DNA of 64,000 nucleotides, taken from NCBI GenBank assembly GCA_944390315.1, contig CALXPO010000024.1, positions 778 to 64,777 on the forward strand, given 5' to 3'. Below, piece by piece: positions 5,428 to 20,639 of the stretch. The position numbers and the translations under genes were made by a program. The DNA is from an uncultured Alphaproteobacteria bacterium (lineage in GTDB: Bacteria > Pseudomonadota > Alphaproteobacteria > RF32 > CAG-239). The notes below the pieces were generated by a model that searched no databases, was not told the DNA's origin, and was given only the letters and a program-made list of their open reading frames with translations. Within the stretch, counting starts at the first letter, position 1; every line of letters begins with the position of its first letter.

Positions 5428-6219
5428 TTGCTTACTGTTTTTAATGATTATATAACAGTTATGAGAATTAACATCAAAACGGAAAACATCATGGAAAAAA
5501 TTATCAATTATATTGCTAAAGGTCAGGGTTTAGGCATCAAATATTTACTTCTTTTTGCCTTAATCGTAACGATTATTTTTAGCATTAACATCAAGTTAAT
5601 CGGCGAAGATATTATGGTGCCCAAGGCTCAAGAAATTGCTAATCAATTTTTACCTGTCAAAATTGAGAACGGCGAAATTGTAGAACCTATCAACATCGTA
5701 AAAAAGCATACAATCATCGTCGGTGAGGGTGAAAGCGCTCAATCTTTCGATATCCTTATGGATACAACAACGTATAATCTTGATCCGACGGAATTAAAAG
5801 ATGGCATCTATATTACACGCTCCGCTGTTTATACCGTTAATGACGGTGAAGCAAGAGTCCATAAATTAGAAGATTCTTTAGACCTGCCGAGCGGCGACTA
5901 TACTGAATTGTTTACCTCATTTTTGAATTGGGGAATTTTTATTTTCGGCATTTTTGCATTCTTAGGTTTGGCGCTGTTCTATTTTATAGCTGTTATTTTT
6001 TATGCGACCTGCTCTTACCTCATTTCGCTGATTATGCGTAAGAAATATAACTACGATTTAAGAATGAGATTAAGCACATTAGCTTTCATCGTGACATATA
6101 TTGTCTTTTCTATTCTCGAGCTATTCGGCTTTGGCAGCAACCTTATCTTTTTCTTAGCTGTTTTAGCTTTGCAAAGTTTAGTTATGAAAGACATTCCGAC
6201 CCAAGAAGTAAATCAATAA
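5428..6219 (+). CDS. Hypothetical integral membrane protein (DUF1189-like architecture: N-terminal TM, soluble domain, C-terminal TM bundle).
   Basis: ORF with clear TM segments at both ends. Followed by a rho-independent terminator. Confidence 0.5.
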   Translation: MLTVFNDYITVMRINIKTENIMEKIINYIAKGQGLGIKYLLLFALIVTIIFSINIKLIGEDIMVPKAQEIANQFLPVKIENGEIVEPINIVKKHTIIVGEGESAQSFDILMDTTTYNLDPTELKDGIYITRSAVYTVNDGEARVHKLEDSLDLPSGDYTELFTSFLNWGIFIFGIFAFLGLALFYFIAVIFYATCSYLISLIMRKKYNYDLRMRLSTLAFIVTYIVFSILELFGFGSNLIFFLAVLALQSLVMKDIPTQEVNQ

Positions 6220-6237: not shown

Positions 6238-6264
6238 GGCCTCGCTTCGGCGAGGCTTTTTTTG
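6238..6264 (+). terminator. Rho-independent terminator (GGCCTCGC-TTCG-GCGAGGC + T-tract).
   Basis: GC-rich stem-loop followed by TTTTTTTG, read directly. Confidence 0.55.
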
Positions 6265-6345
6265 TCTACTATCCATAACTATTCTACGGTAGATAATGCC
6301 AAATTATATTTACATTATTTATTTTTTATGTTACATTAGACAAAA

Positions 6346-7344
6346 TTGTTCGAAAGGGTTAATATGAAAAAAAATTCGCTATGGCAAAAAATAAAAGATA
6401 AATTTTGTCACAAATTTATCAAATTGGCTATACTTTCACTTCCCATACTCGGAACAAACGCCGGCGAAAATACTTCACCGCTACCTTCCTCGGATATTGC
6501 CAAGAATAAAGCCTTAACAGAAAAGAGCGTCTCTCCTTCTCGGCAAAATAACTTTGTCCCCCTCAATTCCGATGAAATCATTGCTCAAAAACTTCTTTCC
6601 GAAAAACAAAATATTATCGGAAATTTTAATTTGAACGACAGAGAATTTTCTGCCGAAGATTTGTCACGAATACAACAATGTCCCCTAAACGAACAAATCA
6701 TTAAAACTGCAAAAAAAAATGCCAAACGAGGCGTCCCCGGCTCCGGACAACAAACATACTGTCTCGGCGCCGTTAAGGAATTTTATAGCGCCAACGGAAT
6801 AATTATCGACGCTCAACGTTTTGCATACCGCGCCGTTGATAGTTTGCAGACAAATTCAAACTTTACGGAAATAAACGTTAACATATCAGACTTTGCAAGC
6901 ATGCCTGACGGCGCTCTGATGGCATGGGAAAAAGGCACGACACGCTATGGACATATTGCCATGAAAATCGGCAATAGAGAATATTGCGACTATGTTTATA
7001 ACCTTCATACCAATAATCGCCGCGGAAGAACAGGACAACGTTATGGCAAAGCCCATGTTTTTCTGTTGAAACAAATGCCTCTTACCGAAGATTTTACTCG
7101 TAAATTGATTGCGGAAGGACGGCTGAAAGATGATGTCAGAAAAAGAATTGAAGCTAAAATCAAAACAGATGATATGTATGCCAGATTGAAATATCACCCG
7201 CTAAAAACTTTTGATGTTGCAGATTCTGCTTTATTTCAAAGAAATTCGGCGTCCGTCGAAAGTCCAACTTCGCATTCCCAAAAATATGCGGGAAACCAAT
7301 TTGATATAAACATGATTAAAAAAACAAAAGAGAAATCACGTTAA
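6346..7344 (+). CDS. Secreted hypothetical protein with a putative CHAP/NlpC-P60-like Cys...His motif pair (YCLGAV ... YGHIAMKIG). Candidate amidase or peptidase effector. The start may be Met7 at 6364.
   Basis: Signal-peptide-like N-terminus. Cys and His motifs resemble the CHAP catalytic dyad. Low GC. Confidence 0.45.
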   Translation: MFERVNMKKNSLWQKIKDKFCHKFIKLAILSLPILGTNAGENTSPLPSSDIAKNKALTEKSVSPSRQNNFVPLNSDEIIAQKLLSEKQNIIGNFNLNDREFSAEDLSRIQQCPLNEQIIKTAKKNAKRGVPGSGQQTYCLGAVKEFYSANGIIIDAQRFAYRAVDSLQTNSNFTEINVNISDFASMPDGALMAWEKGTTRYGHIAMKIGNREYCDYVYNLHTNNRRGRTGQRYGKAHVFLLKQMPLTEDFTRKLIAEGRLKDDVRKRIEAKIKTDDMYARLKYHPLKTFDVADSALFQRNSASVESPTSHSQKYAGNQFDINMIKKTKEKSR

Positions 7345-7436
7345 CTTTTGTCAATTGATTATTTGCATAAAAAAAACTGGATTTTAATTTTGAAAGTGAT
7401 ATACTAGACAGAAATAGACAATTAAGGCAAAGTAAA

Positions 7437-8780
7437 ATGGGAAAATTTTCAGCAGATAAAGATTATGCACCGCGCGTCTCAATGCATAGGGATTATGAAC
7501 AGCACAAAAAACGCGGCGAAGCCTTGAGTGCTCGAAAAAAACAAATTCTCAGTAAAAACAAACAGTCTGTCGATAAAAATCGTGTTACCGAACAAACCAA
7601 CATCAGTCAACCAACGCCAAGTAACGTCCCCTCTCTGACCGATGAACAAATTTATTCCAAATTAGAAGAATTAAGTGCAAAATTCAGAGCTACAAACGGT
7701 CAAACCGAAGAAGCCGAATTAAGAAAATTTGCCGAACAATACCACCTCAATTTACGCGTTACGTCCGCTGTTTCAAAAACAGACAAAAGTGCCATTGCTC
7801 GTATGGTCTTTAATGGTGGTGTTGAAAAACCAATGATCGGTTACTCTCCAAAATTCGCCGATATTGCAAATTATCCTTTTAAATATTCCGTAAATCCTAA
7901 AAATCCAGAGGATTACAATTTGGATGATTCTACAATTTGGCAGGCTATGGCCGAAGAACCAAGACTCTTTGAAATGAAAGATAAAATAAAATCGGCTCTC
8001 GCTAAAGCCGGCGTTCCAAAAGAGATTCTTCCCGATATGAATCTAAATGATTTTAAGTACCTCATGTTTAATTATTGCGGTGCTCAGAAAGGTCTCGGTT
8101 TTACGAAGCTGTTTCAGGCAAAAGATGAGAATGGAACACCTCTTACCTATAAAGACAGAAACGGAAGAGATGTTCCTATATGCACCAGCGCAAAACAAGA
8201 AAATGTAATGCGTTTTATGCGCGAAAATCCGCAATTTAAGACCATGCTTATGAAAATGCCCGGCATTAACAGAGCTTATGTCGATACCTTAACCAAAAAA
8301 ATGTCAGAAACGGGGCTGACTGATATGTCCAAAGAACTCGAGCGCCACCCGGAATGGGCAAACCAGCCCGCAATTGACGTACATCATATCATCAATATCA
8401 AAGATTGTCGTTTGCTGGAAGAACAAGGAAAATCTTATGCTGCCGTTAATAATTACGAAAATATGTGTATTGTCAGCAATGGTACTCTGCTCGATGCCGT
8501 TAGTCGCGCCAGAAAAATGTCTTCGGAAAACAAAAATACTTCCGTTCATGCCGGTATTCATACTGCCGACGTTGTCTTCAGCGATAAGACAGATAAAGGT
8601 GATATTAAGCGGACAATGGCACGCCTTGAACCCCAACCCGGAGTTAGATGCATGCTCGGATTTAATGACGATATGATTATTATGGATTCAAATTATCAAC
8701 AGCAAACTAATACTCAATCTAACAATAACAATTCGCAAATGTTTTTCATAAAGCAAAATAACGGAGCCGCAAGAGCATGA
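7437..8780 (+). CDS. Putative polymorphic-toxin-like protein. The C-terminal region carries an HNH/AHH-like nuclease motif (DVHHIINIKD ... NNYEN ... HAGIH).
   Basis: HH dyad, downstream Asn, then an HxxxH-like His, consistent with HNH-superfamily toxin domains. ATGA overlap with a downstream SUKH immunity gene. No match to a housekeeping family. Confidence 0.5.
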   Translation: MGKFSADKDYAPRVSMHRDYEQHKKRGEALSARKKQILSKNKQSVDKNRVTEQTNISQPTPSNVPSLTDEQIYSKLEELSAKFRATNGQTEEAELRKFAEQYHLNLRVTSAVSKTDKSAIARMVFNGGVEKPMIGYSPKFADIANYPFKYSVNPKNPEDYNLDDSTIWQAMAEEPRLFEMKDKIKSALAKAGVPKEILPDMNLNDFKYLMFNYCGAQKGLGFTKLFQAKDENGTPLTYKDRNGRDVPICTSAKQENVMRFMRENPQFKTMLMKMPGINRAYVDTLTKKMSETGLTDMSKELERHPEWANQPAIDVHHIINIKDCRLLEEQGKSYAAVNNYENMCIVSNGTLLDAVSRARKMSSENKNTSVHAGIHTADVVFSDKTDKGDIKRTMARLEPQPGVRCMLGFNDDMIIMDSNYQQQTNTQSNNNNSQMFFIKQNNGAARA

Positions 8781-9193
8781 CTATTCAGGAATTAATTGAT
8801 TACATCAAACAAAATGACGAGGTCGGATGCAATAAAGCCACTTCTGATGTAAAAATCGCCATCGGCGTTCTTAAATTAAAAGAAGCCGGTCTTCCCGAAC
8901 CCAGTACCGATTATTATAAGCTGTTGCGACAATTCAACGGTCTTTCAAATAACGGTGGCTATGTTATGGGAATTAATCCTGAAAGTACTTTTTTTCCAAA
9001 TCTTATTGACTATAATCTAAAAGAAAAAGAAAATCTTAATACGGGTGAGATTATTCTTGGCTATGATGATGATTATTGGCTAATTTATAACCAAAATAAT
9101 AAAAATTATAAAATTGTGGATCCTGATGACGGTTCCGAAGAAGGGACATCAAACAACTTAGCCGATATTATTCCTTACGTACTCCATATATGA
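8777..9193 (+). CDS. SMI1/KNR4 (SUKH-1) family protein, putative immunity protein for the upstream toxin.
   Basis: About 138 aa with YYKLLRQFNGLSNNGG...ILGYDDDYWLIY motifs characteristic of SUKH/SMI1-KNR4. Translationally coupled to the toxin gene. Confidence 0.6.
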   Translation: MTIQELIDYIKQNDEVGCNKATSDVKIAIGVLKLKEAGLPEPSTDYYKLLRQFNGLSNNGGYVMGINPESTFFPNLIDYNLKEKENLNTGEIILGYDDDYWLIYNQNNKNYKIVDPDDGSEEGTSNNLADIIPYVLHI

Positions 9194-9200
9194 AGGATAT

Positions 9201-9392
9201 TTGATTATGATGGAATATATAAAACGAAAACTTTGCAGATTAGAAGAAAAAAACGATTGGCGTAAAAAAATCCCGTTTCCGCATTATTATGAAGAAAACG
9301 GAAAAATCGTAAAAGAAACGGCTGACGGGAAAAAATATGTTGTTACTTTAGACGATGCTTATAATGAAGTGATTGTGGAGCAAATAAAATGA
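9201..9392 (+). CDS. Small 63-aa protein, putative epsilon-like antitoxin. ATGA overlap with the zeta-family gene.
   Basis: Position and size immediately upstream of the zeta-toxin-family gene, overlapping it. No sequence motif. Confidence 0.35.
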   Translation: MIMMEYIKRKLCRLEEKNDWRKKIPFPHYYEENGKIVKETADGKKYVVTLDDAYNEVIVEQIK

Positions 9393-10243
9393 GAATGAAA
9401 AAACCTTGGATGGTTGTGATTGCCGGACCAAACGGCGCAGGAAAATCGACTTTTTATGATTTGGTCATTAAAGACGATCCTTTAATGAAAAATGCTCCTT
9501 TTATCAATTTGGATAATATTGCAAGAGATATATCCGAACCTCAGGATAATCCAAACAACAACATGATTAGTGCCGGAAAAATTGCCTATCAAGAAGTGGA
9601 AAAACACATTATCGGTAAAAAAAGTTTTGTATATGAAACGACGTCGTCGGGAAAAGTACACTTGCGCTTTATGGATGAAGCCAAAAAAAGAGGTTTTAAA
9701 GTTGCAACAATATTTATAGGTCTTTCGACACCCATGTTATCTTATTTGCGTGTTAAAGACAGAGTAACAAAAGGCGGACATGATGTCCCGACAAAAGATT
9801 TAAGACGTCGATATCCTAAAATAATGAAAAACTTTCCCGATATGCTAAAACGCAGCGATATCGCCGCTGTTTTTGATAATTCGGGCGATAAACCTTTCAA
9901 ACTTATTTTTCTCATGGACGATAAGGCTTTTCGCATTTTTTATAAATATCCTAAATGGCTTGAGGAATCTATCAAAGAACGCAAAACCCGCAAAGACATG
10001 ATTATGGTAAGAAATTCTCCTTCTGTTCATCAACTCAGCGATGAACAATTGCGCGAAATTTCAAATCAAGCCCTTAGCGCCGTAGCCGGTCTTAATAACG
10101 AAGCTATTCCGAATATTGTCGGTTCGGCCGATACCATCCCCGAAGATGCACGTGAACTTCCTAATCTACTTGAAGAAAATCAGGAAAAAAGCCGTAATGC
10201 AGCTCAGTGGATAAAAAGAATTAAAGAAGAAAATCAAAAATAG
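9389..10243 (+). CDS. Zeta-toxin family P-loop kinase (UNAG-kinase-like) with a C-terminal extension.
   Basis: N-terminal Walker A (VIAGPNGAGKSTF) followed by an INLDNIARD-type motif, as in zeta/PezT-family proteins. Low-GC island context. Confidence 0.65.
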   Translation: MRMKKPWMVVIAGPNGAGKSTFYDLVIKDDPLMKNAPFINLDNIARDISEPQDNPNNNMISAGKIAYQEVEKHIIGKKSFVYETTSSGKVHLRFMDEAKKRGFKVATIFIGLSTPMLSYLRVKDRVTKGGHDVPTKDLRRRYPKIMKNFPDMLKRSDIAAVFDNSGDKPFKLIFLMDDKAFRIFYKYPKWLEESIKERKTRKDMIMVRNSPSVHQLSDEQLREISNQALSAVAGLNNEAIPNIVGSADTIPEDARELPNLLEENQEKSRNAAQWIKRIKEENQK

Positions 10244-10750
10244 ACATTTCAGCCAAACCGAGGGGTGCTGTACAACCAGTAACTGGTGACTTTACTCACT
10301 CAGTTGAATTTGTAAATTGTCAATCTGATTTCTATACAACCTGCAAATTTGTGACTTGACTAACCTTTCTGACAAGACACCGTATTGTTTTCTCAGCGCA
10401 TTGAACTTCAGCCTCAAATAAATACCCCATTTTGTGAGAACCAACTTGTAGAAATAACTTAAGATTATTCTTTCATTTTTTGTCGGTCTGCTCAATATAT
10501 GGCATAATTGCTGTTTTTTACAATATGATATGCATGATTGACTTAATGTGTATGAGATTTAACTTTCCGACGAAGCGGTTAATATGAATATATGTAACTT
10601 ATTTATCTTTTTGCTTTTAAGCAATAAACTTAAATTAAGTTGGTAGAATTTATCAATAACTGAACAAGCTATATCTTTTATCTTTCAGCATAAAACTTGG
10701 GTACATAATTTGAGTGCATAACTTAGAATTTTGAAATTGCTTACAAAATT

Positions 10751-11374
10751 CTAGTAATTCCCATCATAATTATCACTCGATGGAGGATATTCATTATATT
10801 CGCTATATCCGTTTTGTTGTTCTCTCAAGCGTTGTTGCTGCTCATAATAACGCTGTTGACGACTTCTGGCTTCCTGCTCTGCCGCGGCTTCATAAATTGC
10901 GGTTATAATTGTATCACGAAATTCACGGGGATGGGCAATATCTCGGATAACCATACTACTTTCATCGTTTCCGACTTGAACAATGGCATCACCTGCTCCA
11001 AACAATCTCTGAATTAAACTTTGGACTATCTGCACATCGTTTATTTTTGCCAACGGAATATCTTTTTCTTTTATATTAATAATACCCCTGCGTACGTAAA
11101 CACGCTGATTGGTCACGGCATAGATTTTTAATTTATTATCAATTCTGCGATATATGTACGGGATAAACAAAATACCACCGATAAACGTTAAAAGACCTGC
11201 CACGGAATAAATATGTCCCAGCACATTAAAATGCTCTCCTTTACCGACACCGCTCCATGCTGCTAACATCATCAATATCCCGATAGACATTAATAAGGTA
11301 GGAATAACAAAAACTTTATAACTAAAATGCGCCTCGATTTTTACATATTCGTTTGGACGTAGTGCCAATGTCAT
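10751..11374 (-). CDS. Membrane protein with a bacterial PH domain (bPH_2/YdbS-like) and a Q/Y-rich C-terminal tail.
   Basis: Two N-terminal TM helices followed by a PH-like domain pattern. Low-complexity C-terminus (YEQQQRLREQQNGY...). Confidence 0.55.
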   Translation of the reverse strand: MTLALRPNEYVKIEAHFSYKVFVIPTLLMSIGILMMLAAWSGVGKGEHFNVLGHIYSVAGLLTFIGGILFIPYIYRRIDNKLKIYAVTNQRVYVRRGIINIKEKDIPLAKINDVQIVQSLIQRLFGAGDAIVQVGNDESSMVIRDIAHPREFRDTIITAIYEAAAEQEARSRQQRYYEQQQRLREQQNGYSEYNEYPPSSDNYDGNY

Positions 11375-14300: not shown

Positions 14301-15422
14301 TTATTGTTTCCACCATTTCAAAAAATTATCCCAAACCGAACTCGTCTTGGTCGGTATTGCTTTTTCAGAGTATTTGTTCGCCGGTAACGGAAAAATCTCT
14401 TTACCGTAAGGCGTTAAAACCTGCTTGATATATTCCGTACTGACGCGGCAAGTATGTATTCTTTTAAGCGAAGATTGACAAATATTAAGCCAAGCATCAC
14501 CTTGGGAAAACAAAAATAAAGGATTTTTTGATTTTAAAAATATCTTTGAAAACTCCGTCGGCTGAGATTGAAAGACCAATACCGACAAAAAATCACTTCG
14601 CTGCAAAAAAGAAATTTTTTCATAGTCATTATCCGAAGTCGACAGGACTAAAAAAATTCCACAAGCACCACCTTTTTGCAGCAATAAAGACATATAATTT
14701 TTAATCATAGATTCTTGTTGCATTAGACTGAGAAATTCATCTAAAACAACAATAATATACGGCAATTGTCCGACATGATTATGATAATCTCTGATATGGC
14801 GGCTGCCGCTTTTTTGAAAAAGCAACCGACGCCGTTCCGTTTCTTCGCATAACCAAGCCAAAGTCTCATGAACCTGCTCCGGTGTATTTAAAACCGGTGC
14901 CAACAAATAACTTTGCTGATTATATATATCAAACTCTCCATCGGCATTGAACAGAATGAACTTTATTTCATCTATGTTTTTCTTTAGAACCAAAGACAAA
15001 ATCAACGCCTTCAATGCCGATGTTTTGCCGCAGCCGCTTGTACCTAAAAGCAACAAATGTCGCATTTGATACAAATCAAATACTTGCGGAATACCGCTTA
15101 CATCGGTTCCAAAACAGACGGGCAATAAGGCGTGCGTCTTTTTAAATACTTCACCGGCTGACAAGGTTTCAAAATCAAGGGGGCTTTCCTGTTCAGCCGA
15201 AATTTCCAACAATAAGTTTTCAGTTTCGGGAAGATTCTCGCTAATAACTGACTTGCATCCCAGCTCTTCCATCATTTGCGGAATAATTTTTTCCAGCTCA
15301 CGGCTTTGATTTTCATCTATCCATACCAGCTCGGCCAACTCACATCTCGGTCCGCGACCTTGATGAATCATCTTGACTTTTAACCCGTGGACGTTCAAGT
15401 AATTTGCAACTTGCGATATCAC
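14301..15422 (-). CDS. FtsK/SpoIIIE-like P-loop ATPase. Motor-domain core only: no membrane anchor and no gamma domain.
   Basis: Walker A (LLLGTSGCGKTS), Walker B (YIIVVLDEF) and a GIFLVLSTS block align with the FtsK alpha/beta motor. At 373 aa it lacks the terminal domains. Confidence 0.65.
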   Translation of the reverse strand: MISQVANYLNVHGLKVKMIHQGRGPRCELAELVWIDENQSRELEKIIPQMMEELGCKSVISENLPETENLLLEISAEQESPLDFETLSAGEVFKKTHALLPVCFGTDVSGIPQVFDLYQMRHLLLLGTSGCGKTSALKALILSLVLKKNIDEIKFILFNADGEFDIYNQQSYLLAPVLNTPEQVHETLAWLCEETERRRLLFQKSGSRHIRDYHNHVGQLPYIIVVLDEFLSLMQQESMIKNYMSLLLQKGGACGIFLVLSTSDNDYEKISFLQRSDFLSVLVFQSQPTEFSKIFLKSKNPLFLFSQGDAWLNICQSSLKRIHTCRVSTEYIKQVLTPYGKEIFPLPANKYSEKAIPTKTSSVWDNFLKWWKQ

Positions 15423-18650: not shown

Positions 18651-18801
18651 ATCTTTTGCTTAGTTTAGCACTTGGAGACACAAGGTCAAGGAGATTGCGA
18701 CTTTATTTGCAGATATAATCTTTTTATTAGAAAATACCAGTATGCCATTTTAAAATAGCAAAATACCTCAAGTCGGTAACTTGAGGTATTTTCTTATTAC
18801 A

Positions 18802-19194
18802 TTATTTCAGTTTTGTTATTTTGAGATGGCGAATAATATCCGTGTCTGCCGGCGGAAATTCATAATTATCCAAATCTTCGGGCGCAACCCAAGCAAATTT
18901 TTGATGAACATTGAGCTTGGGTTCGGCATTTTCGGGAAAATAAGTCCGATAAAGATTAATTTTGAACTCGCCGTTCGGATAACTGTAAGTCGTATCCATA
19001 ATAAAATCGCCGACTTCAACATCAAGGCTCAGTTCTTCCTTTATCTCTCTTTTCAGGCACTGTTGAAGGGTTTCGCCCTCCTCCAATTTTCCTCCCGGAA
19101 ATTCCCACAGATTAGGCAGCGGTTTTCCCTCGGGACGCTGAGCAATAAAAATTTTTCCCTCTTTAATCACCAAAGCCGCACTGACTTCTTTCAT
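18802..19194 (-). CDS. mutT: NUDIX hydrolase (MutT-like 8-oxo-dGTP diphosphatase).
   Basis: Nudix box GGKLEEGETLQQCLKREIKEELS. Confidence 0.8.
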   Translation of the reverse strand: MKEVSAALVIKEGKIFIAQRPEGKPLPNLWEFPGGKLEEGETLQQCLKREIKEELSLDVEVGDFIMDTTYSYPNGEFKINLYRTYFPENAEPKLNVHQKFAWVAPEDLDNYEFPPADTDIIRHLKITKLK

Positions 19195-19196
19195 CT

Positions 19197-20639
19197 CTAG
19201 GCTCCCAATTTAGCCAAAGCAGCTTGGACACGATTTAAGGTTTCTTGCTTACCCAAAATTACGGCAATTTCGGTTGCACCGCCGGCCGTGGTTTCTTTGC
19301 CGCTTAAGGCTATACGCAACGGATATAAAATCTGTCCGTTTTTCAGGCCGTTTTCTGCCGCCAGATTTTTCAAACATTCAAACAGGTTCTCATTCGTCCA
19401 ATCCGCAACCGTCGGCAATACTTCTGCTGCCAATTTCAAAGTATTTTGAGCAACCTCGGCATTGGTTTTCATCTTTTTATTTTCATAAAACGACAAATCA
19501 TATTCAGGTACGTTTTCTAAGAAATCGGTTTGGGAAACAATATCAGCCAAAGTTTCAACACGCGGTTGCAAAACCTTGCTCAAAAACTCTAAGTTAAGCG
19601 GACGTGTCAGATATTTTTGGTAGTAAGGCATAGCCAGTTCGTGAAATTTTTCGGTCGGCAGTTCTCTGATATAGCAACCGTTCATCCAAGTCAGCTTAAC
19701 TATATCAAAAATCGCCGGTGATTTGTTAAGGCGAGAAATGTCAAACACTTTTTCCAACTCGGAAAGTGAGAAGATTTCTCTGTCATCGCCCGGATTCCAA
19801 CCAAGCAATGCAATATAATTCAAAATGGCTGCGGGCAAATAGCCTTTGGCGACCAAATCTTGGAAAGAAGCGTCACCGTTTCTTTTTGATAATTTATGCT
19901 GAGCATCTTTCATAACTTGCGGAACATGTACATAAATCGGCGGCGTCCAACCAAAAGCCTCATAAATCAAATTATACTTCGGCGTGGAAGAAATATATTC
20001 GTTTCCGCGGACGACATGGGTAATGGCCATCAAATGGTCATCAATCACATTGGCAAAGTTATAAGTCGGAAAACCGTCGGTTTTAAGCAAAACACCTTCA
20101 TCCAAATCGTCATAATCGATTTCAATATCGCCGTAGACTTCATCATGAAAATGAGATTTTCCCTTTTTATTGATGGTTTGACGAATGGTATAAGGCTCTC
20201 CCGCCGCAACTCTGGCTTTAGCTTCTTCCAAGCTCAGATGTTTGCAGGGATCTTGAAATTTGGTCGGAACGGCTGCTTCTTCACCGTCTTCGCTCTCGGT
20301 TTCTTCTTTTTGTGAACAGAAGCAGTAGTGGGCGCCACCCAACTCTACCAATTTGTGCGCATATTCGGCATAAATCGCTTTTCTTTCCGACTGAATATAA
20401 GGACCGTAATTGCCGCCGATATCCGGACCTTCGTCCCAATTCATTCCTACCGTTTTCAAAGTTTGGTAGATAATATCGGTTGCTCCTTCGACATAGCGTT
20501 TTTGGTCGGTATCTTCAATACGTAACAAAAAATCACCGCCGGTAGATTTGGCGATTAAATATTCATATAATGCGGTACGTAAATTTCCGATGTGCATATA
20601 GCCGGTCGGAGAAGGAGCAAATCTGGTTCTTGCTTTCAT
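19197..20639 (-). CDS. gltX: Glutamate--tRNA ligase.
   Basis: HIGN (class I HIGH) motif, KLSKR (KMSKS) motif, full-length similarity. Confidence 0.9.
   Translation of the reverse strand: MKARTRFAPSPTGYMHIGNLRTALYEYLIAKSTGGDFLLRIEDTDQKRYVEGATDIIYQTLKTVGMNWDEGPDIGGNYGPYIQSERKAIYAEYAHKLVELGGAHYCFCSQKEETESEDGEEAAVPTKFQDPCKHLSLEEAKARVAAGEPYTIRQTINKKGKSHFHDEVYGDIEIDYDDLDEGVLLKTDGFPTYNFANVIDDHLMAITHVVRGNEYISSTPKYNLIYEAFGWTPPIYVHVPQVMKDAQHKLSKRNGDASFQDLVAKGYLPAAILNYIALLGWNPGDDREIFSLSELEKVFDISRLNKSPAIFDIVKLTWMNGCYIRELPTEKFHELAMPYYQKYLTRPLNLEFLSKVLQPRVETLADIVSQTDFLENVPEYDLSFYENKKMKTNAEVAQNTLKLAAEVLPTVADWTNENLFECLKNLAAENGLKNGQILYPLRIALSGKETTAGGATEIAVILGKQETLNRVQAALAKLGA

Follow-up and report, generated by a model that had tools for sequence, protein, structure and literature searches.

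Five genes on the plus strand of a contig from an uncultured alphaproteobacterium of the RF32 lineage (CALXPO010000024.1 of assembly GCA_944390315.1, of which a stretch of 64,000 nucleotides, here called the window, was analysed) probably mark a long-resident and plastic site, shared by a clade of uncultured gut Alphaproteobacteria, that lies between the operon of a DUF1189 gene and the gene of a bacterial PH-domain protein and carries three modules side by side: a candidate cell-wall amidase (g1), a nuclease candidate with its predicted inhibitor (g2-g3), and a zeta-family kinase with a small partner (g4-g5). An earlier note on this DNA had described the same genes as a low-GC accessory island of about 4.5 kb, most likely acquired horizontally. 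Its finding of five co-oriented genes was confirmed, and the conflict-type character that it gave the locus is supported by the nuclease toxin candidate g2, the YrhA/SUKH-like g3 and the membership of g5 in the Pfam family Zeta_toxin. Four of its five domain guesses hold, and the fifth, which made g4 an epsilon antitoxin, fails. The observations on which our explanation draws concern the anatomy, homology, synteny, composition, residue conservation and co-occurrence of these genes.

Seven related species were retrieved through tlyC and further loci through the relatives of g2 (loci are designated by L numbers and proteins by P numbers). In at least eight related species, orthologues of the locus genes occupy the interval from DUF1189 to the PH-domain gene, and the genes are present in all conspecific contigs and, at the same site though with varying content, in most of the related species. 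In species of the L007/L009 type and in many metagenome contigs the order is DUF1189, g1, a DUF308 gene and a HAD gene (both on the minus strand), g2, g3, g4, g5, about 500 bp of spacer, the PH-domain gene (minus strand) and fucO. L048 and L050 follow this order and add a split second gene of the iron-containing alcohol dehydrogenase (Fe-ADH) family between g5 and the PH-domain gene, and L010 follows it with an insertion after g1 that contains a C5-methyltransferase gene. L006, which is without g1 and differs in its downstream flank, has g2-g3 (with g4-g5) after DUF1189, as do L007, L009 and L010. L011 retains only DUF308 (minus strand), g4 and g5, followed after 82 bp by the PH-domain gene, so that g1 and g2-g3 are missing. 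In the distant L015, whose g2 is 41% identical, the order is DUF1189, DUF308 (minus strand), g2, g3, PH (minus strand) and fucO, with neither g4-g5 nor a spacer, and in L016 g2-g3 is followed by the gene for a homologue of the PH-domain protein (65% identity), g4-g5 again being missing. The opposite-strand genes that separate g1 from g2 in relatives (L007 14565-16477, L010 12142-13715 and L031 2368-3987) encode a DUF308 (HdeD-like) membrane protein and a HAD-family hydrolase; the window species has lost both, and g1 therefore adjoins g2.

The history of the genes themselves can be read from their composition and divergence. GC content at third codon positions (GC3) of each orthologue tracks that of the host, running from roughly 0.20 (L011) up to roughly 0.70 (L006, L007 and L009). 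Identity to the window ranges from 47 to 77% for the five genes, which is inside the spread of the flanking genes (45-91%), and contigs of the same species are 99.7-99.99% identical, with no surplus of differences in the five-gene region. Phage and plasmid searches matched no relatives of the locus. Because the genes occupy the same place in relatives, track their hosts in GC3, fall within the range of identities of the flanks and show no excess variation among conspecifics, they are old residents of the site that have been gained and lost piecemeal, and not a unit that arrived recently. The earlier note had named a conserved gene order in relatives, with uniform composition, as what would refute it; this is largely what was observed, though not in every relative. 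Since gene content varies between species, we regard the locus as a long-lived, plastic site for conflict genes. Its three modules (g1, g2-g3 and g4-g5) are independent and have different histories, in that g4-g5 occurs without g2-g3 in L011 and in other contexts, and g2-g3 without g4-g5 in L015, L016 and L028.

The insertion in L010 (8391-11631, minus strand) consists of three added genes between g1 and DUF308: one is for a C5 cytosine DNA methyltransferase (PF00145, E 1e-81), and the products of the other two, 463 and 211 aa long, are unannotated. It is probably a restriction-modification system, and the site would therefore collect defence genes.

That the genes were foreign had been argued from their composition, all five being described as lower in GC than the flanking tlyC and fucO. 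Taken together, the region is indeed lower, at 0.366 as against 0.402 in the rest of the window (3.6 points), and lies at the 2nd percentile of sliding windows of the same size, although these windows overlap and are hence non-independent. fucO, at 0.444, is higher, and it is the only flanking gene clearly above g1 (0.385) and g2 (0.398); these two are not below tlyC (0.380), the DUF1189 gene (0.346) or the PH-domain gene (0.383). Nor is tlyC the immediate flank, the nearest upstream neighbours being a 124-aa open reading frame (ORF) and the DUF1189 gene. With 61 genes of the window as the reference, four of the five genes (g4 is too short to be scored) have z-scores of -0.2 to -1.7 for GC and of -0.5 to -1.6 for GC3, and because their synonymous-codon fit has z-scores of 0.0 to +1.2, their codon usage is typical or better than typical for the window. 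The atypical composition was thus not found, the genes being ordinary for the window, and the GC deficit stems mostly from the 507-bp tail behind g5 together with the small genes g3 and g4.

Both supposed borders of the island can be explained without an insertion. On the upstream side, the hairpin at 6238-6257 has eight pairs, six of them G-C, and a TTCG loop, and with the T-run that follows it forms a good intrinsic terminator, so that the strength attributed to it was confirmed. Its role as a bracket was not: a G+C-rich hairpin with a T-run lies 3' of DUF1189 in most of the relatives examined (L006, L007, L011 and L015, less clearly in L010), at the same place and with a different sequence in each. 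Because most of these relatives carry a terminator after DUF1189, the terminator is the ancestral end of the upstream operon and not the border of an island.

On the downstream side, no credible gene lies between the convergent g5 and PH-domain genes, in agreement with the earlier note, which had gone on to suggest a decayed integrase gene or a tRNA remnant. ARAGORN found no tRNA in the entire window, Rfam no family in the tail at E <= 1, and a six-frame Pfam scan of the tail was empty; tblastx, repeat, and phage and plasmid searches likewise returned nothing to uphold the suggestion. Compared with the corresponding spacers of other species, the tail showed no similarity in nucleotide or tblastx searches, and it is not similar to the Fe-ADH gene found at this position in L048 and L050 either. 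Flanking repeats do not go beyond chance (a 23-nt repeat, D4, is absent in relatives), and there is no excess of RNA structure (folding z-scores of -0.2 and +0.4). The tail is typical of intergenic DNA both in GC content (0.316, with 0.331 for pooled intergenic DNA) and in length, other convergent spacers in the window measuring 498, 418 and 416 bp. Elsewhere in the clade the interval from g5 to the PH-domain gene is 82 bp (L011), about 500 bp of unrelated sequence (L006, L007 and L009), or 1.4 kb (L048 and L050). The tail is ordinary, fast-evolving, species-specific intergenic DNA, and may be eroded DNA of some kind.

Two further observations concern the tail and its position. The second Fe-ADH-family gene at this place (L048 6983-8014 and L050 6949-8111, minus strand) is split into pieces of 290-294 and 71-72 aa, and because the two pieces are in different frames it is apparently a pseudogene. 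Within the tail of the window (10584-10646, plus strand), a 20-codon ORF with a start region (CGAAGCGGTTAATATGAA) similar to that of g1 (6351-6368) encodes the hydrophobic peptide MNICNLFIFLLLSNKLKLSW, and a promoter-like site lies upstream (10480-10508). The peptide recalls small type I toxins and has no conservation beyond the species.

Among 5.8 billion proteins, a search at word-index sensitivity returned 54 close relatives of g2, all of them full-length and none annotated by Pfam, and an exhaustive profile search of 1.84 billion representatives yielded 158 clusters (73 at E <= 1e-10) of proteins that are 400-1000 aa long and without Pfam domains. In the structural model of g2 (predicted local distance difference test score, pLDDT, 81; predicted template modelling score, pTM, 0.75), residues 1-65 are disordered and basic, and residues from about 66 to 300 form a folded, confidently modelled body; for residues 1-300 no Pfam or NCBIfam domain and no structural match was found. 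In the C-terminal domain, His317 is invariant, and His316, Asn338, His371 and His375 are at least 90% conserved among 61 sequences that are 14-42% identical to g2. The model places the HH pair at the end of one strand (311-317), a second strand at 343-350, and two His residues one turn apart on a helix (370-377), with two short helices inserted between the strands. A conserved HH on the first strand, an Asn between the strands and a His on the helix are the features of a His-Me finger, and motif and model together predict that the C-terminus is an xHH nuclease domain of the HNH/EndoVII type. The guess that g2 is a toxin is thus sustained in the form of a nuclease toxin candidate, by the HH...N...H...H signature and by a profile match to the tail of E. 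coli YhhZ, and the protein would presumably act as a toxic DNase.

In the close relatives of g2 the HH pair is preceded by V, I or M, and in distant ones by V, I, C, G or A (rarely A); isolated members of the family match AHH, HNH_2 and Col-Pyo_DNase weakly. Formal membership in AHH was considered for g2 and rejected, its score being below the gathering score and the near-absolute A-H-H tripeptide not being kept. Several distant relatives (P0227, P0232 and P0221) end in a K/R-rich tail with a G-x-G-R-x(2-5)-G motif that the g2 of the window does not have (e.g., RGMGRPNYKGLGNHG, GTMGRPNNRGLGKFGG and RGIGRYGKSA).

The gene downstream, g3, matches the NCBIfam YrhA family below its curated cut-off (NF038335; E 4e-12, 46 bits), as do seven of seven g3 orthologues (best E 1.9e-12) and the partner of the g2 relative in L028, and Pfam SUKH_6 matches g3 weakly (E 0.015-0.03); on these matches we call it YrhA/SUKH-like, in keeping with the SUKH label given earlier. 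A g3 homologue follows the g2 relative in all 24 metagenome loci that extend far enough, including those whose g2 relatives are only 31-35% identical, and also in L015, L016 and L028, the last of which has a 584-aa g2 relative between pepA and sua5. The genes overlap by 4 nt at both g2/g3 and g4/g5, and the g3-g4 and g1-g2 gaps measure 13 nt and 92 bp, respectively. Most likely, g3 is the inhibitor (immunity protein) of g2.

The leader of g2 contains an extended -10 element, with TG at 7397-7398 and TATACT at 7400-7405, and a ribosome-binding site. It is 74-76% identical (blastn) to the leaders in L007, L009 and L010 despite the different upstream gene there, and TGnTATAAT is kept in a seven-species alignment that includes L015 and L016. 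These sequences point to a promoter belonging to g2 itself and conserved whatever lies upstream. Directly after the -10 element, a direct repeat, TAGACA-N4-TAGACA, occupies 7405-7420; L006, L007, L009 and L010 have TAGACA-N3-5-TAGACT, and L015 and L016, which are more distant, have no such repeat. It may be an operator or leader element.

Natural variants of the pair come from the well-sampled L007-type species, in which five different broken g2 alleles occur, each with its nuclease part destroyed: P0030 and P0034 are frameshifted at or just before the HH motif, P0036 has a deletion with a frameshift, an in-frame deletion in P0051 joins the g2 N-terminus to g3, and P0031 (contig L031, 4127-5515) has lost the C-terminus of g2 together with g3. 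No allele without g3 but with an intact nuclease domain was seen, in what is a small sample. Within that sample, the pattern is as a toxin-inhibitor pair predicts. Some of the L007-type alleles join the N-terminus of g2 in frame to g3 or g4, and in L052 a further allele may have both g2 and g3 damaged.

For the third module, g5 scores 40.1 bits against Pfam Zeta_toxin (PF06414; cut-off 22.3 bits), and its Walker A motif (G13-K19), D42, E83, R121, R125, H131 and R140 are invariant in 25 sequences. The zeta assignment of the earlier note was accordingly upheld, by this score and by the invariant Walker A and Asp. The protein is a P-loop kinase with a variable C-terminal extension, and its 1258 relatives bear the source names 'zeta toxin family protein' or 'predicted ABC-type ATPase' (COG4185-type). 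The 61-aa g4 matched nothing in Pfam, NCBIfam, PADLOC or PHROGs, and its profile found nothing relevant among PDB sequences; it is no epsilon antitoxin and belongs to a small family of its own. Homologues of 58-59 aa overlap the starts of g5 homologues by 4 nt in the unrelated contexts L020 and L023, and homologous g4-g5 pairs occur in L006, L007, L011, L020 and L023, at least three different genomic contexts. Because homologous small genes overlap g5 homologues in all of these contexts, g4-g5 form a two-gene cassette, most simply a toxin-antitoxin pair. The small gene has the arrangement of an antitoxin gene, being upstream of, coupled to and co-inherited with the gene for the kinase, and we regard g4 as the putative antitoxin that would neutralise g5, the presumptive toxic kinase.

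For g1, no match was found in four libraries, i.e., there is no sequence-level family membership, and its 23 relatives all belong to the same clade. Cys133, His197 and Cys208-Asp209 are invariant among them. The AlphaFold model has a confident core (approximately residues 70-260), whose closest solved fold is that of the type VI effector Tae3, followed by CHAP and NlpC/P60 enzymes; Tse1, Ssp1 and Tae4 match too. The model thus makes g1 a predicted papain-fold peptidoglycan amidase or endopeptidase with an NlpC/P60-CHAP-like core. Its N-terminus, with a basic stretch, a hydrophobic helix (residues 5-22) and a disordered linker, is probably a Sec signal or anchor that would direct export.

If these assignments are correct, g1 would be exported by its own signal and, through the catalytic Cys133 and His197, act on the cell wall, either periplasmically or extracellularly. 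The g2-g3 pair would be transcribed from its own extended -10 promoter, and, by analogy with the fold, one His of H316-H317 would bind the metal and the other activate water, H371 and H375 completing the metal site. Translated by coupling to g2, g3 would bind and block the nuclease in the producing cell. The g5 kinase would be held in check by the g4 protein encoded just upstream, in a cassette that is found at other places too, in other Alphaproteobacteria.

Several observations weigh against the explanation that we favour. Content at the site is uneven: g1 is missing from L006 and L011, g2-g3 from L011, and g4-g5 from L015 and L016, L010 has its restriction-modification insertion, and the window species lacks DUF308 and HAD. 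Because gene content differs between species, the locus genes are not core, and they may have been transferred within the clade. The g2 model is confident, yet it has no PDB match for any part, the N-terminal body included, and for this reason the assignment of a nuclease fold rests on motif and secondary structure. Against Pfam AHH (PF14412), g2 scores 22.0 bits, with a gathering score of 22.3 bits, and just 2 of 21 members of the family, and 2 of 61, match at E <= 0.01. The 46 bits of g3 are below the curated NCBIfam cut-off of 55 bits, and a distant 900-aa relative of g2 (P0265, in L032) has no g3-like neighbour. In addition, neither the sequence nor the profile of g5 matched the sequences of solved zeta and PezT chains, and the longest PDB matches of the profile are to P-loop domains of the polynucleotide-kinase type.

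An alternative to a site with independent modules, which we think unlikely, is a single operon for an interbacterial weapon, in which g1 and g2 are effectors delivered into competitors by a secretion system encoded elsewhere, g3 confers immunity, and g2 has in its N-terminal body a new domain for loading or trafficking. In structure, g1 comes closest to a type VI secretion system (T6SS) effector, and the nuclease motif of g2 together with g3 corresponds to E. coli YhhZ-YrhA, of which YhhZ has an Hcp (type VI tube) N-terminus. There is precedent in Hcp fused to HNH-DNase, a proven type of T6SS effector (PMC6730261), and in SUKH proteins, the classic immunity partners of secreted HNH toxins (PMC3113570). 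In or beside g2, however, no secretion-system gene and no PAAR, Rhs, Hcp, VgrG, LXG or signal peptide was seen (the remainder of the genome was not screened for such systems). Polymorphic toxins combine a recognisable N-terminal trafficking or secretion domain with variable C-terminal toxins (Zhang et al. 2012, PMC3482391); in g2 no such N-terminal domain was recognised, and the toxin end is constant, since all full-length relatives examined keep the xHH domain and variants with other C-termini are frameshifts or deletions. Diversification within the species is also lacking.

The weapon operon fares no better with g1. Like the Tae effectors, g1 has a papain-like amidase fold with a catalytic Cys-His, but it is not free of a signal-like N-terminus, no Tai immunity gene adjoins it, and it has no linkage to a T6SS: its neighbours are g2 in the window and DUF308 and HAD in relatives, with no T6SS gene nearby, and in relatives these unrelated opposite-strand genes part it from g2. 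Because it has a probable export signal of its own and no neighbouring immunity gene, g1 looks more like an exported cell-wall hydrolase than T6SS cargo. As to the pair, relatives of g2-g3 lie among housekeeping genes. It is slightly more likely that g2-g3 is an intracellular toxin-inhibitor pair of the addiction or defence type than an exported weapon, because there is no recognisable export domain, because the whole protein and not only its toxin tip is conserved, and because these relatives stand where they do. More tentatively, the N-terminal body of g2 (approximately residues 66-300), which is always joined to the xHH nuclease and usually accompanied by a putative YrhA/SUKH inhibitor, could define a new class of nuclease systems, either as a delivery or loading domain for interbacterial killing in gut Alphaproteobacteria without known effector architectures, or as part of a defence or addiction module that senses a trigger (e.g., phage) and releases the nuclease.

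That all of these genes perform ordinary housekeeping, with g1 as a cell-wall remodelling hydrolase, g2-g3 as a DNA-repair or recombination nuclease with its regulatory subunit, and g5 as a kinase of nucleotides or small molecules, strikes us as rather improbable. Long vertical residence, native composition and low variation within the species would suit such roles, as would the signal-like N-terminus of g1 without an immunity gene, the polynucleotide-kinase-type matches of g5 and the distant g2 relative that does without g3. Yet the genes are dispensable (g2-g3 is absent in L011, g4-g5 in L015 and g1 in L006), several frameshift and deletion alleles of g2 occur naturally, g3 resembles a family of the immunity type and is translationally coupled to g2, g4-g5 behave as a movable two-gene cassette, and the site has also gathered the restriction-modification system of L010. 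Least credible of all is a recently acquired 4.5-kb island, inserted as one unit and trailing the remnant of an integrase gene or tRNA attachment site: the GC deficit, the content that varies among related species (with a restriction-modification insertion in one) and the variable interval behind g5, with its decaying gene in L048 and L050, speak for it, but they are outweighed by the recurrence of the genes at this spot in at least eight species, with host-tracking GC3, by native codon usage, by the absence of a tRNA in the window, of Rfam and six-frame Pfam signals in the tail and of repeats beyond chance, by the lack of phage or plasmid relatives, by an ancestral terminator and a tail of typical intergenic size and GC, and by modules that differ in history.

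Table 1. Positions of the locus genes, their flanks and associated elements in the window; the last row refers to residues of the g2 protein.
Feature	Position	Strand	Remarks
g1	6364-7344	+	326 aa; alternative TTG start at 6346
g2	7437-8780	+	447 aa
g3	8777-9193	+	138 aa
g4	9207-9392	+	61 aa; alternative TTG at 9201
g5	9389-10243	+	284 aa
Conserved promoter and 5' leader of g2	7368-7436	+	
Non-coding spacer, g5 to convergent PH-domain gene	10244-10750	no strand	
DUF1189 gene, upstream flank	5428-6219		
Bacterial PH-domain gene, downstream flank, convergent with g5	10751-11374	-	
Intrinsic terminator of the DUF1189 gene	6238-6264	+	GGCCTCGC-TTCG-GCGAGGCT then T7
Nuclease signature residues of g2	H316, H317, N338/N342, H371, H375		C-terminal domain

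Outside the window, the locus is identical or nearly so in a metagenome-assembled genome (MAG; GCA_949286285.1) and in several metagenome contigs, and among relatives with a name the closest are MAGs that carry the label 'Azospirillum sp. 51_20' or 'uncultured Alphaproteobacteria'. Some 4 kb downstream of the locus, a gene at 14301-15422 (minus strand) encodes a 373-aa ATPase of the FtsK/SpoIIIE type that matches the PADLOC models SspH (E 7e-13) and mad8 (E 1e-11); it is missing at the equivalent place in L011 and 33% identical in L015, and may be another variable defence-related gene. L011, a low-GC relative, has no fucO between its PH-domain gene and the small ORF and sigma-factor genes (14650-14808), and the FtsK-like gene further on is the one also missing. 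Elsewhere in the window, an ORF at 18781-19200 (plus strand) has very aberrant codon usage (z-score -4.6) and a GC3 of 0.54; because it overlaps almost completely with a minus-strand ORF at 18802-19194, it is likely to be a shadow ORF and not a gene.

For annotation, the locus carries a warning: a run of toxin-like genes, a slightly low GC content and a long AT-rich spacer need not mean a recent island, and here the genes have co-evolved with hosts whose GC3 ranges from 0.2 to 0.7. Only the nuclease family of g2, narrow and unannotated, is truly uncharacterised at this locus. The g2-g3 pair is a useful lead, since it joins a predicted YhhZ-type His-Me nuclease and its putative YrhA/SUKH inhibitor to an unmatched domain of 300 residues in abundant uncultured Alphaproteobacteria of the human gut. 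Establishing the role of that domain, be it export, targeting or regulation of the nuclease, would enlarge the known range of toxin-immunity architectures. The third module, g4-g5, for its part supplies a candidate family of antitoxins for COG4185, a large branch of the zeta-like kinases.

Among known systems, g4-g5 is to be compared with epsilon/zeta and PezAT, whose kinases act on UDP-GlcNAc. Similarities are the score above the Pfam cut-off, the Walker A motif, the invariant Asp that follows it after about 23 residues, at the position of the catalytic Asp of zeta toxins, and the small, translationally coupled upstream gene. In contrast to these systems, g5 has no sequence match to solved zeta, PezT or UNAG kinases, the 61-aa g4 is unrelated to epsilon and PezA, and the g5 family corresponds to the COG4185-type 'predicted ABC-type ATPase' group, for which we know of no tested substrate. 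With Tae3 and other type VI amidase effectors, and with NlpC/P60 and CHAP hydrolases, g1 has in common the papain-like fold and catalytic Cys-His; unlike a bare effector domain, it has a long linker behind a hydrophobic, signal-like segment at the N-terminus, and its neighbours include no Tai-like immunity gene.

The nuclease pair resembles two described systems. The AHH, LHH and WHH toxin domains, which have the HNH/EndoVII fold, carry two His residues on the helix in addition to an HH dyad on the first strand (Zhang, Iyer and Aravind 2011, PMC3113570). The predicted g2 domain likewise has an HH dyad ending the first strand and two His residues on a helix, and, much as in those systems, an SUKH-like gene (g3) lies immediately downstream; it differs in that its N-terminal part is constant and unrecognised, its toxin end is not polymorphic, and two short helices are inserted between the strands.

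The other system is that of E. coli K-12, in which yhhZ, annotated as a 'putative endonuclease', is overlapped by yrhA over 4 nt. YhhZ has an Hcp tube domain at its N-terminus and is presumably a member of the published Hcp-ET1 class of HNH-DNase type VI effectors, which have immunity genes downstream, whereas the N-terminal 300 residues of g2 match neither Hcp nor any other PDB entry; direct similarity of g3 to YrhA is weak, and their likeness comes mainly through the common NCBIfam model. The family profile of g2 matches the C-terminus of YhhZ (p ~1e-6) in register with HH...N...H, such that the motif reads NVHHK...NDFENL...PYH in YhhZ, DVHHI...NNYENM...VHAGIH in g2 and VHHK...NHFENL...PYH in the g2 relative P0220, and in both systems a YrhA-like gene follows with the same 4-nt overlap of start and stop.

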